Of a DNA stretch of 64,000 nt, positions 8,382-57,957 are shown piece after piece. Origin of the DNA: an uncultured Chthonomonadaceae bacterium (GTDB lineage: Bacteria; Armatimonadota; Chthonomonadetes; Chthonomonadales; Chthonomonadaceae); contig CAWFQB010000001.1 of assembly GCA_963817895.1 (NCBI GenBank), positions 160,001-224,000 of the forward strand, given 5' to 3'. Position numbers and translations under genes: made by a program. Below the pieces are notes generated by a model. That model searched no databases and was not told the DNA's origin. It was given only the letters and a program-made list of their open reading frames with translations. The stretch's first letter is position 1. Each line of letters starts with the position of its first letter.

Positions 8382-8768
8382 GTGGCAACACGCGAACAGG
8401 TTTATCTTTTCTGCTGGCTGTTGGCGATGTTATTCATCATTGCGGAAAAGCCCATTGAGGAAAAATACAGGCCGAACGGCAAACTTCGCGAACATCCGAA
8501 GATTTGTACCCGTTCCGAAGCGACTCTGGGTTGCGCGGCGATGGTCGTACCCTATTACTTCCTCTTTTTTGGAATTCGCCCGCCTCAAAACTTCGCGTGT
8601 TGGATTTGGGGCGTGAGCCTGTCTGCCGTGCCGTGTTTTGCCGCTATCTGGTACTGGCAGCGCAAGTATCCGCCCCAAATCGCCCGGTGGTTTCTCGCGA
8701 AACTCGGCACAGACTTTATGATGCGCGCGGTCATTCAAGGCATCTGGTGGCTATGGGTTTGGCATTGA
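8382..8768 (+). CDS. Hypothetical membrane protein
   Basis: GGAGG RBS; several hydrophobic segments. Confidence 0.5.
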   Translation: MATREQVYLFCWLLAMLFIIAEKPIEEKYRPNGKLREHPKICTRSEATLGCAAMVVPYYFLFFGIRPPQNFACWIWGVSLSAVPCFAAIWYWQRKYPPQIARWFLAKLGTDFMMRAVIQGIWWLWVWH

Positions 8769-10001
8769 CATAGAGGCGGGCGGGTTTGCCGATTTCTTCG
8801 CCCATTTTGCTTCCAATGCCGGACGCTTAACCCGAATAAAGTGATCGGGCGCGGACGTGGTAACGCTCATTCCCATAAACATAGGCTTGCGCGGCATGTG
8901 ACAGCCCACGCAGCCGGTGCGGGGATTAACCGGGCAGACATTGCCGATTTCCGATTTTCGATTTTCGATTTTCGATTGAGTTCCTTCTTTTCCCTTTTCC
9001 CTTTTCCCTTTTCCCTGTCCCGAATGGCAACCAAGACACGCCGCTTCGTACTTGCGCATGTTGTGGGAGGTGTTCTGGTGGGGGTTGTGGCAGGTGTTGC
9101 AGGAGAGGGTATTCTTGCTCTCCTTGAAACAGCGGGACAGCATCAGGCCATACGGCTGGAAGCGGGACGTGACGCTCAGGTCGGGCGTATCGCCCACCGC
9201 CATGCCCGCCACTTCCGCGTTGCGGTGGCACTTGCCGCACAGGTCGTTGACCCGCTTCGCGTCCCATTTGCCGATACGCTCTATTTGTATATCCGCTGTC
9301 TTGCCGCTTTGCATTGCCGCAATGTGCGCCCCCCCGGCCCCGTGACACGCTTCGCAGCCCACGCCGTAGAATCGCTTTTCCGGTATGTTCGAGTCGGGCG
9401 GCAGCGTGGTGACGTGGCACTGGATACAGGAACGCGCCTCCTCGTCCCTGTGATCTACGCCCAGTGCCGTTCGGGAAATGTTCTTTTGTCCCGGCGTGAT
9501 TTTCCACTGATGCTGATTGGGAAAATAACTGGCGCGCATTTCAAAAACGTGGCTGCCCATCGGCGTCACATACGTCATGCCGCTTTTACCGGAACCAAGC
9601 GCGTACCGCAGCGGCCCCTGACCGCCCCCCGGCATCTGCGCCTGATAGCCATCCCCTACCTGTATGATCCGCGCTCTGGTTCCGGGTAACGGACCGGTTT
9701 TGGGCGCCAGTCTGCCCAAACTGATTTTATCCGCCGCATGGAATGTAATGGCGTGACGACTGGACTTGTGATCTCGAAACGCCTGCGCGTGACATCCGGC
9801 GCAAGCCTGATCGCCCACAAACACGGCAGTATCCCCCGTATCCGAAACCGGGGGAGCCGGGGCAACCGTCGCGTCTTTTACCACAGCGGCAGGCGCTACC
9901 GACGGCGCGTTATGAACGCAGCCCGCCACGCACAGCAGCAGGATAAAGGAGGCGACTATAAACAGGATAGTCGCGCGACAGGCGGAAAAGGAACGCATCA
10001 T
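8751..10001 (-). CDS. Multiheme c-type cytochrome lipoprotein (cytochrome c554-like), 7 CxxCH
   Basis: CAGCH, CIQCH, CEACH, CGKCH, CNTCH, CLGCH, CVGCH; lipobox VAGC. Confidence 0.9.
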   Translation of the reverse strand: MMRSFSACRATILFIVASFILLLCVAGCVHNAPSVAPAAVVKDATVAPAPPVSDTGDTAVFVGDQACAGCHAQAFRDHKSSRHAITFHAADKISLGRLAPKTGPLPGTRARIIQVGDGYQAQMPGGGQGPLRYALGSGKSGMTYVTPMGSHVFEMRASYFPNQHQWKITPGQKNISRTALGVDHRDEEARSCIQCHVTTLPPDSNIPEKRFYGVGCEACHGAGGAHIAAMQSGKTADIQIERIGKWDAKRVNDLCGKCHRNAEVAGMAVGDTPDLSVTSRFQPYGLMLSRCFKESKNTLSCNTCHNPHQNTSHNMRKYEAACLGCHSGQGKGKREKGKEGTQSKIENRKSEIGNVCPVNPRTGCVGCHMPRKPMFMGMSVTTSAPDHFIRVKRPALEAKWAKKSANPPASMSMPNP

Positions 10002-10260
10002 TACAACTCAGTTCATTTCAACTCATTGTGGCAATTTCGCGTAACCGTCGGCAGCAACACAGGATAACATACTTCCACATTGTAGCGCGAACAGGGTAAT
10101 TCGTCAAGGCGCGATATATTTTTCTGCGCAATATGAACATCCCCGGACTCTCCGCGTCTAAAATTATGCAGCCGGATAAAAGATTATCAGTCAGGTGAAA
10201 ACTGTTGAAAATATTCTGCGGACGAAGCAGGAATCCGGTATGATAATAGTGTAAATAAGA

Positions 10261-10323
10261 GTTGACAAAGAATTTTGAAAAAATTCTTGCCAACGGGTGT
10301 CACGAAATTCGGAGCGTCTCGTA
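10261..10323 (+). promoter_or_regulatory. Operator-like inverted repeat plus ECF-type promoter candidate
   Basis: GTTGACAAAGAATTTT / AAAATTCTTGCCAAC imperfect palindrome (10261-10294); TGTCAC-N16-CGTA at 10298-10323. Confidence 0.45.
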
Positions 10324-10388
10324 CCGAGACAACAATGGAACGTTTTGGAAAGATTTGCGCTCTGAACGCCGTGTTGAGGAGAGTGCCC

Positions 10389-11978
10389 GTGGTCACGCAA
10401 AATAACAATTTAGTTTCGCGAACCGCCGTAACCGCCCGGAAATCTTCCGGCGAGATGTCACGCGCCGTTGCCGTCGCGGTGACGCCGCTGGAAGCGGCGG
10501 AAACCATATTTCGGCGCTTCGCGCCCCGCGCGATTTCGATACTGTCTAATCCGCGCACACTGGAAGATGGCCGGACGCTTCCCGCCCGCCTGAGCGCGAA
10601 TGACTGCTATGTGGCGATGGAAGAGGCGTGCCGGAAAATGGCCCGCGTAGCCCTGCGTAAGTTCGAGGGCGATACCACGCTGGAAGCGATTGGCTTTTCC
10701 GACGCGCTGGACGTGATCTTTCCCGATCCGCCCGCGTATCTGACCCGCTGTATCCGTTCCGTCGTCAGCGATGGCGAGCGCGTGACGCGCCGGGAAGTTC
10801 CCGCCGTTTCGATGGATCAGCCGATTGGCTTCAGCGGCGACGGCGACAACGCCCTGTGCCTGCGCGATACCATTTCGGACACGGACAGCAACGGGCAGCC
10901 CGAAACCGCTTTACTGGAACAGGACGACCGCCAGCGTTTCCGCAGCGCGCTGAACAACGCCCTGCAATCCATTCCGAAAAACTATCTGGAAGCCTTGCAG
11001 CGCGACATGTCCCGCTCCCGCGAACGCGAAGACGGAGCCAGAACCGCGCCCGAATCCGATAAGGAACGACAGACCGTGTGCCGCGCCCGCGCCGCCGTGT
11101 CGGAAATCCTCAAGCGCGAGTGCGGCCTGGACAATCCCTTCATACGCCAACTGGCGCAGCAGAGGAGCGGACGGGTGCGCCAAAAGCCAACGGCAGGGAA
11201 AAACACAGCCAACTGGACGGCGGAAAAGCAGAGCCATCTGTTTCAGCGCCTGCTCAACACCTCATGGCAAGATCGCGCCCAATCCGGCGCGAACCCGGAC
11301 GGCAACATTGAGGAGGCGATTGTTAACGACGTGAGCGGCAGCAGCAACGTCGCGCCGCCCTCGCCCGAAATGCGCCAATCCATGCGCGTGATGGACATGT
11401 ATTACCTGAACGAGCGCAAAACAGAAAATAATGACGCGCAGGAACTCTATAATCAGGCCGAAACCTCGCGACATCGTGGTAAAATAGAAGAGGCGATGCG
11501 CCTTTACCGGCAGGCGTATGAACTGGACCCGAAATATTTCGCCGCGCTTAACGAAGTGGGCCTGCTGCTGATGCAAACCGGGAACCTGCGGGACGCGCTG
11601 AAAGTCTATCTGACAATCGTAGAGCATCCCGAAGCGGGCGCGATCAAGTATGTGGCCGCAACCAATGCCGCGGATGTGTATCTGCACTGGTTTGACGCGG
11701 GCCGCAACAAAGAGCGCAACATCGAACGCGCCGCGTTTTATGCCAAAATGGCGATGCGCAAGCCGACACCCATGCGCGCCTGTAACCTGATTTTGGCGTA
11801 TGTGAAAGACCGATACTATACGGAAGCGCAGGAACTGATGAACACGGTTCTTCAAAGCAACCTGCCCGGCTGTCCCGCCGATAAGTTTTTGCAGACGCTG
11901 TTCCAAATCCGCGATGCCGATCTGGTATCATGGTGGAGTTGGCTGGACAGCGAAATGGGAAAGGATGAAGTCCGATGA
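10389..11978 (+). CDS. ECF-sigma-like protein fused to C-terminal TPR domain (start GTG 10389 or ATG 10335)
   Basis: Region-2-like PPAYLTRCIRSVVSD; VSMDQP linker; region-4-like ALQSIPKNYLEAL...RQTVCRARAAVSEIL; TPRs EEAMRLYRQAYELDPKYFAALNEVGLLLMQTGNLRDALKVY; GAGGAG 7 nt before the GTG. Confidence 0.75.
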   Translation: MVTQNNNLVSRTAVTARKSSGEMSRAVAVAVTPLEAAETIFRRFAPRAISILSNPRTLEDGRTLPARLSANDCYVAMEEACRKMARVALRKFEGDTTLEAIGFSDALDVIFPDPPAYLTRCIRSVVSDGERVTRREVPAVSMDQPIGFSGDGDNALCLRDTISDTDSNGQPETALLEQDDRQRFRSALNNALQSIPKNYLEALQRDMSRSREREDGARTAPESDKERQTVCRARAAVSEILKRECGLDNPFIRQLAQQRSGRVRQKPTAGKNTANWTAEKQSHLFQRLLNTSWQDRAQSGANPDGNIEEAIVNDVSGSSNVAPPSPEMRQSMRVMDMYYLNERKTENNDAQELYNQAETSRHRGKIEEAMRLYRQAYELDPKYFAALNEVGLLLMQTGNLRDALKVYLTIVEHPEAGAIKYVAATNAADVYLHWFDAGRNKERNIERAAFYAKMAMRKPTPMRACNLILAYVKDRYYTEAQELMNTVLQSNLPGCPADKFLQTLFQIRDADLVSWWSWLDSEMGKDEVR

Positions 11979-12187
11979 AGACCGAAACTGTAACGCGGAG
12001 ATTGCGCCTGGTGGTAATGGTCGGCGCGCTTGCGCTGATGTTGGGAGCCGGAGCGAAAATCGCGCCGAACTCTCACCGTTCGGATGCGCCTACGGTCACG
12101 ATTTCCAGCGATGTCCTCAATGGCTCGCTTCAGATCGCGGATGGCAGCGAATCAACGGGTGGCGGCAAACCCAAGCCACACGGCTAA
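11975..12187 (+). CDS. Small secreted peptide precursor (70 aa), candidate signalling peptide
   Basis: ATGA overlap with the upstream stop; basic N-region, hydrophobic core and AGA cleavage site; polar tail LQIA-DGSESTGGGKPKPHG. Confidence 0.75.
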   Translation: MKTETVTRRLRLVVMVGALALMLGAGAKIAPNSHRSDAPTVTISSDVLNGSLQIADGSESTGGGKPKPHG

Positions 12188-12189
12188 GG

Positions 12190-12253
12190 AGTTGATAGTT
12201 CGTAGTTGATAGTTGATAGTTCTTGTGTGTCTATCAACTATAACCTATTAACT
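12190..12253. repeat. Inverted pair of heptamer tandem repeats (AGTTGAT / ATCAACT)
   Basis: agttgatagttcgtagttgatagttgatagtt ... ctatcaactataacctattaact. Confidence 0.7.
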
Positions 12254-12277
12254 TTCCAAGCCAGTATTCTATTGTTC

Positions 12278-12305
12278 AGCCCGCTTTCGCTTTAGAAAGC
12301 GGGCT
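12278..12305 (+). terminator. Hairpin, putative terminator of the sigma-TPR/peptide operon
   Basis: AGCCCGCTTTC-gcttta-GAAAGCGGGCT perfect 11-bp stem; U-tract weak. Confidence 0.6.
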
Positions 12306-12357
12306 TGCGTCCTGTGTCACCCGTTGTCGCTTTGATAAAGCCATCAGGGAGAGTGTT

Positions 12358-13566: not shown

Positions 13567-14502
13567 CTATTTTTTAGAGGCGAGTTCTTCGTAGGGCGGA
13601 GCTATTTCGCGAGTTCGAGAAACGTACATCGTTCCATGCCCGCCCGGCTTCGGCTGCGCGACAGCAGTATCTTCGATGATGCGTCCGCTGGCCCATAACG
13701 AATACTCTGTAAATCCCCTGTTGAGGGAATGGGCCAGTCGTATATCGGGATGATTGGTAAAGCCGCCCCGGAACCTGTTCGTCGATGCTCCGCGAAGTTT
13801 CGTAATTGGTTCCCAGGTAAACATGCATTCGTCTGCGCTCAGGAATTGAAGCGTTAGTCCTGCGCCCTCTTTCGGGAGAACGCCCGGCAGCGCGTCCCAT
13901 ACTTTTTGCAGCGATTCGGACTGGCTAAACCGATCCACAATCAGCATTTGACGCAACTCCGATTTGTGCTGCATGGCCCAGGGCTTCCACAAAAGGCGCA
14001 GTTGGTAGGCTTTCACGCGAAACTTTGCGCTGTCCTCCGGGCGAAACGCCGCAGGAGTTGCAGCGCCAGAAGGAACAACAGAGGGTGTTCGTATCTGCGG
14101 GCCGGTTAAATATACAAAAAGAGCATGTTGCAGATTGTAGACAAGTCTCGGCCCACATACCGCAACGACCAGTGCCGCGCTTACCGTCATCGCCCATATC
14201 CTGCGCCGTTGCCGTCTGCCCATATCGCCATTTCGATCAAGCACAACGTCTTCGTGAAACGTTTGTGGCATTTCCGCGCCGCTCAGTTCCGGCAGTCGCG
14301 CCATGAGCGCGGCGTAAACATGCGGTGGCGTGGCCTCCCTCGCCAGATTTTGCAAACCGGTTTCGATTTGCCGCATTTGTGTCTGTTCTTCCCGGCACTC
14401 TGGACAGGCGCGGCAGTGCCGGCGCAGTTTCCAGGCTTGTATCGGTGACAATCTTTCACTCTCACGCGAGGCAATCTGCGCGCGGCTCGGTTTGCTGCAC
14501 AT
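13567..14502 (-). CDS. Zinc-binding (zf-HC2) transmembrane anti-sigma factor
   Basis: LRRHCRACPEC (HxxxCxxC); single TM; overlaps the 3' end of the ECF sigma; AAGGAG RBS. Confidence 0.85.
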   Translation of the reverse strand: MCSKPSRAQIASRESERLSPIQAWKLRRHCRACPECREEQTQMRQIETGLQNLAREATPPHVYAALMARLPELSGAEMPQTFHEDVVLDRNGDMGRRQRRRIWAMTVSAALVVAVCGPRLVYNLQHALFVYLTGPQIRTPSVVPSGAATPAAFRPEDSAKFRVKAYQLRLLWKPWAMQHKSELRQMLIVDRFSQSESLQKVWDALPGVLPKEGAGLTLQFLSADECMFTWEPITKLRGASTNRFRGGFTNHPDIRLAHSLNRGFTEYSLWASGRIIEDTAVAQPKPGGHGTMYVSRTREIAPPYEELASKK

Positions 14503-15073
14503 CGTTGCACTCCTTCTCAACGGCGTGAAGCAGGGCTGCCATTTGCTTTTTTGCCTGCCACACGCGCCATTTGGTTGTCGTCAGCGGCTCGTTCATCACT
14601 TCCGCCGCTTCTCGTTGCGTCAATCCCTGCGCAGTGACCAGCAGCAGGGCTTCGCGAAAAAGCGGCTGCAATTGCGCCAGCGCACGTTCCAGAGTCAGGG
14701 CGTCAATCACGCCCGCTTCCATTCCGCCGCCACCCGCCACAGGCATAATCATAATTGTGGTTTCGGGTTCCCCACTCCATTCTTCTATGAATGGAACTGT
14801 TTCCGGCGCGTATTGGCGGCTGCGGTCACGCCACCGTCGGGACGCGATGCCGAGCAGCCATGTCAGCAGGCGCGAACGCCCCTGAAAGCTGTCGCGCCCC
14901 TGCCATGCGGCGAGAAACACCTCCTGCACAATGTCCTCCGCGTCGCTCCGGCTGCCGCTCAGACGCAGCGCGAAGCCCATCACGCGATCCGCATACTGCG
15001 CGTACAGCAGTTGAAAGCCGCGTGGATTGCCCGCCCGTATCAGTTGAAGCAGTTCTTGTTCGTTGTCCCGCAT
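14462..15073 (-). CDS. ECF RNA polymerase sigma factor (sigma-24 type)
   Basis: DAEDIVQEVFLAAW, LLTWLLGIA, region 4 QGLTQREAAEVM...TTKWRV. Confidence 0.95.
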   Translation of the reverse strand: MRDNEQELLQLIRAGNPRGFQLLYAQYADRVMGFALRLSGSRSDAEDIVQEVFLAAWQGRDSFQGRSRLLTWLLGIASRRWRDRSRQYAPETVPFIEEWSGEPETTIMIMPVAGGGGMEAGVIDALTLERALAQLQPLFREALLLVTAQGLTQREAAEVMNEPLTTTKWRVWQAKKQMAALLHAVEKECNDVQQTEPRADCLA

Positions 15074-15158
15074 AAAATTTGCCCTCACCTACTTGGTAGC
15101 GGAAGGGGCGGAAATAGTTAGTGGCTGACGGCTACTATTTAATGCCGAATGAGAACTT

Positions 15159-57093: not shown

Positions 57094-57957
<864 letters not shown>

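Follow-up and report, generated by a model that had tools for sequence, protein, structure and literature searches.

What might a bacterium do with a protein that joins a sigma-like half to a tetratricopeptide repeat (TPR) half, and whose stop codon overlaps the start of a small gene with a signal peptide? This question is raised by a 64,000-nucleotide (nt) stretch of DNA, hereafter the window, from an uncultured Chthonomonadaceae bacterium (assembly GCA_963817895.1, contig CAWFQB010000001.1, positions 160,001 to 224,000, forward strand). A first-pass annotation, made from the letters alone, had proposed a peptide-sensing sigma factor reminiscent of the RRNPP receptors, and the two open reading frames (ORFs), their ATGA overlap and the motifs it quoted are all present in the sequence. 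This work demonstrates computationally the pairing of the two genes, the homology of the receptor domains, the covariation of receptor and peptide, the conservation of a promoter and the co-distribution of these elements. We consider it probable that an exported and trimmed peptide core re-enters the cell and, by binding in the groove of the TPRs, switches the sigma domain fused to them.

The receptor gene and its paired propeptide gene

The receptor was searched in a sample of 401 genomes of the phylum Armatimonadota, to which the named relatives (Chthonomonadaceae, Chthonomonadales) belong. It was found in 53 genomes including the source genome (81% complete), all within one order: besides the source genome, 31/32, 20/20 and 1/1 genomes of the three families of that order carry it, and no match outside the order was found among the 401. 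A profile of the N-domain gave the same pattern (52/401). The gene is single-copy, the sole double match being two non-overlapping pieces at contig ends. Homologues are 45-98% identical and, when full-length, measure about 498-558 amino acids (aa). The best 150 matches among representatives clustered at 50% identity contain, besides complete or fragmentary family members and generic TPR proteins, a single divergent full-length protein. This metagenomic homologue, P0127, shares 35-37% identity, and no further relatives of it were found among 8000 candidates scored.

Two of the 68 loci end within the receptor gene, leaving 66 with downstream DNA. The first-pass annotation had asked whether a small signal-peptide ORF always follows; it does in 66/66 loci, each time with a [D]G-x-E-[TS]-[HNT]-G core, and this pairing goes far beyond chance. 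Five of the 66 propeptides are duplicates. The 61 distinct ones are 48-102 aa long (median 65; a single one reaches 102), all pass a simple hydropathy and charge rule for a basic N-terminus followed by a hydrophobic h-region, and in 59/61 loci their start lies between -14 and +10 from the receptor stop. Judging by the sequence, the two genes are translationally coupled.

Outside the core, the propeptides are highly variable, with a mean column identity of 19%. Within it, G2 and E4 are present in 68/68 copies, a count that stems partly from the search pattern, with both columns also invariant in the alignment; D1 is present in 63/68 and G7 in 66/68. Twenty propeptides end at the core and 6/61 contain 2-3 tandem cores, as is known for Phr propeptides in the available text of PMC11343458. 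The peptide profile matches 63/68 genomes of the order at E<=0.05, a few of them weakly. Separately, a DGQETHG core was seen in a 21-residue open frame (L242 / L086, G404:C195) of a 76% complete genome, with no receptor in the surrounding 3.8 kb or elsewhere in that genome.

Similar cores also occur away from a receptor. Among the 529 small signal-peptide-like ORFs of the source genome, G.E[TS].G is found in only two, the cognate peptide and one orphan, and a four-sequence profile located orphan peptide genes in 8/68 genomes (L091-L098), four of the eight having contributed no sequence to that profile. The orphan core, GTET[THQ]G, directly follows the hydrophobic region. Its type follows the local cognate where both are known, GTETTG with ESTG in this genus and GTETHG with ETHG in G329. 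In most orphans a signal-peptidase-like site immediately precedes the core, a hint that the Asp either can be spared or belongs to the processing site. These orphan peptides may amplify, antagonise or tune the system.

The C-terminal half of the receptor was confirmed to consist of TPRs, with Pfam matches at residues 350-412 (best E 2e-9) and TPR_19 in 56/57 members; a full-length fold search is dominated by generic TPRs. The groove-facing residues R361, N426, D429, M462, N466 and K473 are invariant. The successive Asn residues pointed out at the outset are conserved as well (N426 and N466 in 58/58, N388 in 51/58), the register of repeats 3-4 having been set by hand. By the Pfam register, residue 395 occupies position 12 in TPR2, a concave-face position that sets TPR ligand specificity in the available text of PMC1261162. 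Predicted complexes between the TPR half and propeptide residues 41-70 came out at 0.42, 0.00 and 0.00 in the runs made and were counted neither for nor against binding.

It is residue 395 that covaries with the peptide. Over 58 receptor-peptide pairs and 486 columns, Q at core position 3 goes with S or C at residue 395 in 37/37 pairs, and S, T, V, I or N goes with M, I, N or H in 21/21. Mutual information reaches 0.84 for these two positions, while the runner-up among the 486 columns has 0.34. Six later pairs agree 6/6 (four Q-S, one S-M, one V-I); a seventh was dropped as a duplicate of L003, and two fetched regions had no receptor match. The co-variation of peptide and TPR that the first-pass annotation had called for is therefore seen in 58/58 pairs and in 6/6 further ones. 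The tree places five changes at core position 3 and five at residue 395. Other candidates for covariation, between core positions 5 and 6 and residues 307, 339, 342 and 430, are weaker and bound to clades, and were set aside.

These data bear on whether the small protein is a ligand at all. It could instead be the precursor of a ribosomally synthesized and post-translationally modified peptide (RiPP) or a membrane-anchored accessory, next to an ordinary extracytoplasmic function (ECF) sigma factor with a TPR extension, such as the ECF42 extensions that exist without known peptides in the available text of PMC8999054. No conserved modifying enzyme or transporter adjoins the operon, the covariation reaches a single groove position and orphan cores follow the local cognate core, so that we regard this as the least probable of the alternatives, with only a slight chance of being right. 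Its RiPP variant was rejected, as no conserved enzymes lie next to the operon.

A sigma-like domain and its putative promoter

Does the N-terminal half derive from a sigma factor? No Pfam sigma domain was found in the 529-aa protein at E<=1, and Sigma70_r2 and Sigma70_r4 gave a single weak match each in 1/59 family members; profile and structure tests were therefore needed. The NCBIfam sigma70-ECF model TIGR02937 matches 21/59 members (best E 2.1e-5), followed by the SigK, SigH and RpoS models. The best match of the family profile against PDB sequences is SigL (E 0.14). Alignment with a paralogous ECF of the same genome using hhalign yields a probability of 85% and an E value of 6e-6, collinear from region 2.4 to region 4.2. 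When compared with the genome's 51 ordinary sigma genes, the family profile singles out one ECF group, which we take to be SigE/SigH-like.

The N-domain model (pLDDT 84.5) points in the same direction. The top 16 Foldseek rows are sigma factors or their complexes with RNA polymerase or anti-sigma factors, over 212-318 columns and all at E>=0.11. Ranks 1-4 and 6-8 of VIA-align are sigma factors, with sigma2 and sigma4 matched in order (RpoE sigma2: Z 5.6, root-mean-square deviation 3.7, 81 residues aligned; SigL sigma4: Z 6.5, deviation 3.2, 69 residues aligned). On the agreement of these four partly independent lines, each of modest score, we identify the N-domain from sequence and model as a divergent ECF-derived sigma-70 domain. 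The resemblance to regions 2 and 4 noted in the first-pass annotation, and the fold comparison it had suggested, were thus borne out at modest scores.

The region 2-like domain holds a beta-hairpin and a helical insertion, and its 2.4-like helix reads YLxRxIRSVxxDxxR, with Y117, L118, S124, V125, D128 and R131 invariant. The helix-turn-helix (HTH) segment of the region 4-like domain is atypical, as already remarked, its first helix reading DxxRxRxRxxG, and in the recognition helix R, Q, R, A and R are invariant in 59/59 members. A linker domain with the invariant residues E309, A310, P324, R329, R333 and D336 (model pLDDT 50-66) is a candidate element for coupling sigma and TPR domains.

The invariant recognition helix has a putative DNA counterpart. 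Upstream of the receptor, a TGTCACR-N15-CGT consensus, here called P2, is present in 56/57 regions, with a spacer of 15 in 55/56; upstream motifs are the standard basis for inferring ECF target promoters in the available text of PMC7776599. R227-Q228 aligns with RS in the recognition helix of the paralogous ECF and would be equivalent to Arg171/Ser172 of RpoE, which set -31 and -34 (PMC7776599, same text). A similar element, TGTCACA-16+/-1-CGTC, is read by ECF41 in the available part of PMC3426412, and three ECF41-type sigmas combine an RQxxxRA[RK] helix with a TGTCACA site within 1.7 kb upstream. ECF41 itself occurs in 2/68 genomes of the order and is absent from the source genome (TIGR02957, E<=1e-40). 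Among the 26 readable recognition helices of the 51 other sigmas, RQ is found only in two RpoD-like ones. The sigma-TPR protein itself would thus appear to be the reader of P2.

A second, older input may act further upstream. A loose [GA]AAC-N15-18-CGTC element (P1) precedes 45/57 loci, some of these matches being loose or overlapping P2, and GAAC-N17-CGTCT occurs 44 times between genes of the source genome versus 7-16 times for other spacers. By its sequence, P1 is a probable input from a SigE/SigH-like ECF.

Might the protein recognise the bipartite site as a sigma-derived activator or repressor that does not join RNA polymerase as a subunit? Contact with the core enzyme could suffer from the insertions in region 2 and from the altered region 4, and ECF scoring in the available text of PMC7776599 uses spacers of 16-18, longer than the 15 bp found here. 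However, 15 falls within the 16+/-1 range of ECF41 as far as its available description goes, CGT is what ECF promoters usually have as their -10 half, and the two sigma domains are strongly conserved. We judge this reading very unlikely.

Intergenic P2 sites number 26 in the source genome versus 5-14 for nine other spacers. The bare pattern occurs 32 times versus 15 for a reversed control in that genome, with no consistent excess across 61 genomes, and since such genome-wide counts are uninformative, phylogenetic footprinting was needed. This was done with the 30 best loci per query, the source genome included, and two DUF6600/FecR loci were dropped for their short flanks. P2 precedes the gene of a DUF6600/FecR exported protein in 24/28 loci and that of a small exported protein in 26/30, whereas other spacers reach 3 at most at the footprinted genes. 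It also precedes 8/8 orphan peptide genes, 211-323 nt before the core and in unrelated contexts where inspected, among them the orphan of the source genome (G000:C1:282306-282467, identical to L069:3307-3468 (-)). In the source genome P2 precedes mostly exported proteins.

Outside the order, P2 was found at 0/19 DUF6600/FecR orthologues from 17 genomes (1 of 20 loci was dropped), while a loose GAAC-type site, counted without a control run, is present at 14/19. P2 inside and a GAAC-type site outside the order suggest that this regulon once belonged to an older ECF reading GAAC and was captured from it. The loci concerned are L107:370-3126 (+), L155-L184 and L215-L234.

A separate P2 reader is conceivable. 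As in PhyR, the peptide could expose a sigma-like domain that titrates an anti-sigma factor and frees another ECF. A sigma-like domain joined to a sensor domain is the PhyR plan (PMC4598750, in its available text), the HTH is atypical, the P2 regulon is also present in genomes without a receptor match and its appearance is stress-like. Yet the residues that face the DNA in regions 2.4 and 4.2 are invariant and agree with the TGTCAC code, the 26 readable helices include no further RQ of the ECF type, a P2-like site lies within 600 bp upstream of only 1/51 other sigma genes, which is about chance level, and no sigma or anti-sigma neighbour is conserved. We therefore consider a mimic of this kind quite unlikely.

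Several further observations concern genes with P2. A number of small exported Arg/Asp/His-rich proteins with P2 but without a Pfam family (L070, L105, L106, L108, L109, L114) are possibly related to stress or desiccation. Other P2-like sites of the source genome lie at a subtilase (L116), a polysaccharide deacetylase (L117), DXS (L118), a squalene-hopene cyclase (L121) and a CHRD protein (L123); the subtilase is a candidate maturation protease. Within the window, the Arg/Asp-rich gene at the start likewise has no Pfam family and is a candidate regulon member, and a third exact P2 pattern at 57832 (+) lies inside a predicted coding region and is probably due to chance.

Features of the window and its surroundings

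The positions of the operon, its domains and its promoters are collected in Table 1.

Table 1. Features of the sigma-TPR operon and of P2 sites, numbered from the first letter of the window.
Feature	Position	Strand	Description and basis
Second P2	311..335	-	Upstream of small exported Arg/Asp-rich gene that runs off the window start; site and gene within 1-335
P1, ECF-type promoter GAAC-N16-CGTCT	10135..10159	+	Loose upstream match across loci
P2, putative autoregulatory promoter TGTCACG-N15-CGT(A)	10298..10322	+	Upstream conservation
Ribosome-binding site GAGGAG	10376..10381	+	Before GTG start; sequence
Sigma-TPR receptor gene	10389..11978	+	529 aa, GTG start
Sigma region 2-like domain	10485..10793	+	Residues 33-135; VIA-align, conservation, model
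Sigma region 4-like domain	10881..11123	+	Residues 165-245; VIA-align, collinear with paralogous ECF
Recognition helix R227-Q228-x-x-C231-R232-A233-R234	11067..11090	+	Conservation
Conserved linker domain, candidate coupling element	11214..11423	+	Residues 276-345; two helices, two strands
TPR domain	11430..11972	+	About four repeats plus capping helices; Pfam, model, conservation
Codon for M395 (position 12 of TPR2), specificity position	11571..11573	+	Covariation with core position 3
Propeptide gene	11975..12187	+	70 aa; N-terminus like a signal peptide, then a variable spacer, the core and a short tail
Core DGSESTG (family consensus DGQETHG)	12140..12160	+	Core alignment
Two hairpins 3' of the operon	12188..12304	+	Second is a probable terminator; folding z scores

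A GAGG/AGGA-type ribosome-binding site precedes the equivalent GTG or ATG in most relatives by inspection. An open start further upstream (TTG at 10275) was rejected, as it overlaps P2 and has no conserved ribosome-binding site. The hairpin predicted to follow the propeptide ORF turned out to be two, at 12188-12255 (z -4.9) and, GC-rich, at about 12278-12304 (z -4.1); neither was flagged by a simple terminator scan. The first is an AT-rich imperfect inverted repeat of GTTGATA units, and the source genome has further repeats of this low-complexity kind (GATACGA, AGGGAAA, GGAGACAA), both in its genes and between them. RNA contigs, which come only from related strains making up a small share of the RNA runs and cannot demonstrate a transcript, cover 10290-12307, one of them spanning both genes; weakly, they reach bins to about 12350 and none further.

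No flanking gene is conserved across the order, the largest neighbour clusters comprising 7 loci. In seven loci of family f2 (L033, L054, L058-L060, L062, L063) the next gene downstream resembles, by inspection, an enolase-superfamily dipeptide epimerase, and in seven of family f1 (L010, L017-L019, L021, L024, L029) it encodes an exported helical-repeat-like protein of about 400 aa. Both the Pfam scan and this comparison agree with the earlier remark that no anti-sigma gene is adjacent. The divergent multiheme cytochrome c (8751-10001 (-)), which carries a low-complexity insertion and has sigma-70-like promoter matches at 10107-10079 and 10268-10240, had been put forward as a possible target. 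This suggestion was abandoned, since the gene is not a conserved neighbour and is absent from the largest neighbour clusters, no minus-strand P2 lies upstream of it and the candidate regulon is found elsewhere in the genome.

The window also holds an ordinary ECF sigma gene at 14462-15088, within 13567-15088 (-), which is unrelated to the sigma-TPR finding; the gene after it has an N-terminal HxxxCxxC and likely encodes a zinc-binding anti-sigma factor. Many genes of the assembly, several sigma genes included, stop early or shift frame, which suggests indel errors. The squalene-hopene cyclase (L121:387-1619), for instance, measures 411 aa versus about 700 in relatives.

The proposed circuit and its place among known systems

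The source genome carries BamA and LpxC, and its host is therefore diderm. Together with the Armatimonadota relatives this supports the diderm, non-Firmicute host that the first-pass annotation had assumed. The order consists of outer-membrane bacteria of soil and hot springs. The available text on a cultured genus of the order reports scattered genes and many sigma and ECF factors and does not mention a sigma-TPR system (PMC4959169). The source genome encodes two SBP_bac_5 proteins, a family present in 62/68 genomes of the order. In one genome (L005 / L008, G394:C502) the gene of an SBP_bac_5 oligopeptide-binding protein was seen divergent to the receptor.

From these data we infer a circuit with the following steps of export, processing, import, binding and RNA polymerase engagement. 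Of the two products of the operon, the sigma-TPR protein would stay in the cytoplasm, whereas the propeptide would leave through Sec and be cut down to a core of 6-7 residues, (D)G-x-E-[TS]-[HNT]-G. This core would return to the cytoplasm, probably through an Opp/Dpp-type ATP-binding cassette importer, and bind the concave TPR groove, where the invariant basic and Asn residues may hold its acidic residues and backbone and residue 395 would read core position 3. Binding would then switch the fused sigma domain. We lean slightly towards activation over inhibition as the effect of the peptide, since the target promoter stands before both the operon and the orphan peptide genes, as in an autoinduction loop. 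The active sigma may direct RNA polymerase to TGTCACR-N15-CGT before its own operon, the orphan peptides and mostly exported proteins: the DUF6600/FecR protein, small Arg/Asp-rich proteins and, in the source genome, also the subtilase, the polysaccharide deacetylase and DXS. The probable ancestor of the sigma-TPR protein is a SigE/SigH-like ECF reading GAAC; with an altered -35 specificity, its descendant would have captured part of the ancestral regulon, while P1 would keep the operon under the older ECF. The predicted physiological role of the system is an envelope or stress/stationary-phase programme.

A bolder form of this proposal is that, in a diderm, a sigma factor is under the direct control of a diffusible peptide pheromone, the receptor being a convergent one-protein quorum receptor and itself an RNA polymerase subunit, with DGQETHG as the word shared across the order, dialects set by residue 395, orphans that amplify or tune the loop and a regulon seized from a stress ECF of older date. 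We see the case for and against this form as evenly balanced. The core could alternatively report the cell's own export or envelope state, either because the unexported precursor binds the TPR when Sec is congested, or because the peptide is confined to the periplasm and its retention depends on outer-membrane integrity. The order-wide conservation of the core, the diderm envelope, the translational coupling, the wealth of exported proteins in the regulon and the four carriers lacking SBP_bac_5 (see below) all fit such self-sensing. Tandem cores, and orphan cores placed right after a signal-peptidase-like site, fit processed pheromones instead, and specificity variants co-evolve with the groove; we hold self-sensing to be unlikely.

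A number of findings weigh against the circuit of exported core, TPR groove and fused sigma. On the sigma side, all scores are modest (no Pfam match, Foldseek E>=0.11) and Z values of 5.6-6.5 are of a size described by the tool as common among helical proteins; the hydrophobic core usual for the first HTH helix is missing, and region 2 carries two insertions. One receptor locus (L065) has no P2, the squalene-hopene cyclase has it in only 6/30 loci and nine of the 17 outgroup genomes belong to one family. For 25 of the 51 other sigma genes the helix could not be read, and the source genome is incomplete at 81%. Four genomes have P2-preceded genes and no receptor match (G389, 91% complete; G410, 79%; G406, 77%; G413, 70%), which reflects either assembly gaps or another P2 reader. 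On the peptide side, an AxA site at residues 16-40 is present in only 33/61 propeptides, and four receptor carriers have no SBP_bac_5 match (G109, G254, G215, G136). The covariation rests on five events with only two independent pairs on well-supported branches, so that a sign test is not significant. Finally, an identical DGQETHG is found in 32/68 core copies across the order, which is poorly suited to kin discrimination; to our knowledge, typical kin-specific pheromones such as those of RRNPP systems are far less conserved between species.

The system resembles several known ones. With RRNPP(A) systems (PlcR-PapR, NprR-NprX, Rap-Phr, AimR-AimP, ComR-ComS) it shares a cytoplasmic TPR receptor with an N-terminal output domain, an adjacent small propeptide, likely of the Sec type, with a short core near its C-terminus and occasional tandem cores, conserved groove Asn residues, orphan peptides and a target promoter upstream of the system. 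Their output, however, is an HTH or phosphatase bundle and their hosts are Bacillota, whereas here the output is sigma-like and the host a diderm of the Armatimonadota, with about 4 TPRs, a single-copy core gene and a nearly order-wide core. Of five screening criteria in the available text of PMC10075063, which include a receptor of 250-500 aa and a propeptide of 10-100 aa, three apply (propeptide size, receptor TPRs, gene adjacency) and the signal peptide is likely, but the receptor, at 529 aa, is too long, as are most full-length homologues (about 498-558 aa). No RRNPP structure was found among the listed sequence or fold matches, which are filled by generic TPRs. As output domain and host differ and no homology beyond generic TPRs was seen among these matches, the system was not filed under RRNPP.

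DUF6596 is the marker of ECF42. It was absent from the sigma-TPR protein at E<=1, and hhalign against the genome's own DUF6596 (ECF42-type) sigma gave a probability of 0.2%; the protein is therefore not an ECF42. In the available text of PMC8999054 and PMC7826278, ECF42 likewise fuses sigma2-sigma4 to a TPR extension without an anti-sigma factor, and its activation is proposed to occur through a TPR partner; the adjoining exported-peptide gene sets the present system apart. ECF41 shares the -35 element TGTCAC, the RQxxxRAR helix and a fused regulatory extension. As far as its available description goes, that extension is SnoaL with a single target transcript, in contrast to the TPR, the fixed spacer of 15 and the multi-gene regulon here. 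This likeness looks convergent, since the closest paralogues by profile are RS-type SigE/SigH-like ECFs. PhyR also fuses a divergent sigma-like domain to a sensor, but that sensor is a receiver domain, of which Pfam found none in the sigma-TPR protein; here, a TPR with a co-evolving peptide takes its place and the DNA-reading residues are invariant. In streptococcal ComRS-SigX, a peptide signal also ends in an alternative sigma factor, with an HTH receptor that transcribes the sigma gene; receptor and sigma are separate there and one polypeptide here.

No description of this system was found among the papers listed by literature searches, ECF survey supplements that possibly name these proteins lying outside the search. 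The first-pass annotation was aware of no description of such a system; this needs narrowing, because sigma-TPR fusions are already known from ECF42; what is new is the co-evolving exported peptide. The system is real, conserved and internally coherent, and it joins two known kinds of system, with its ligand, specificity residue, promoter and regulon all predicted. With these four supplied, in vitro assays or a heterologous reporter could put it to the test straight away.

If the circuit holds, a co-encoded peptide ligand would add a mode of sigma control that does not appear in the available text of two ECF surveys, and the range of cytoplasmic peptide signalling would come to include a diderm phylum, where it would act through an output that RRNPP systems are not known to have. 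Peptide ligands would then be worth seeking for other sigma-TPR fusions such as ECF42, and a peptide-inducible sigma factor with its own promoter and a retunable specificity would be a useful orthogonal switch. For this poorly studied order, it would be the first defined regulatory circuit.

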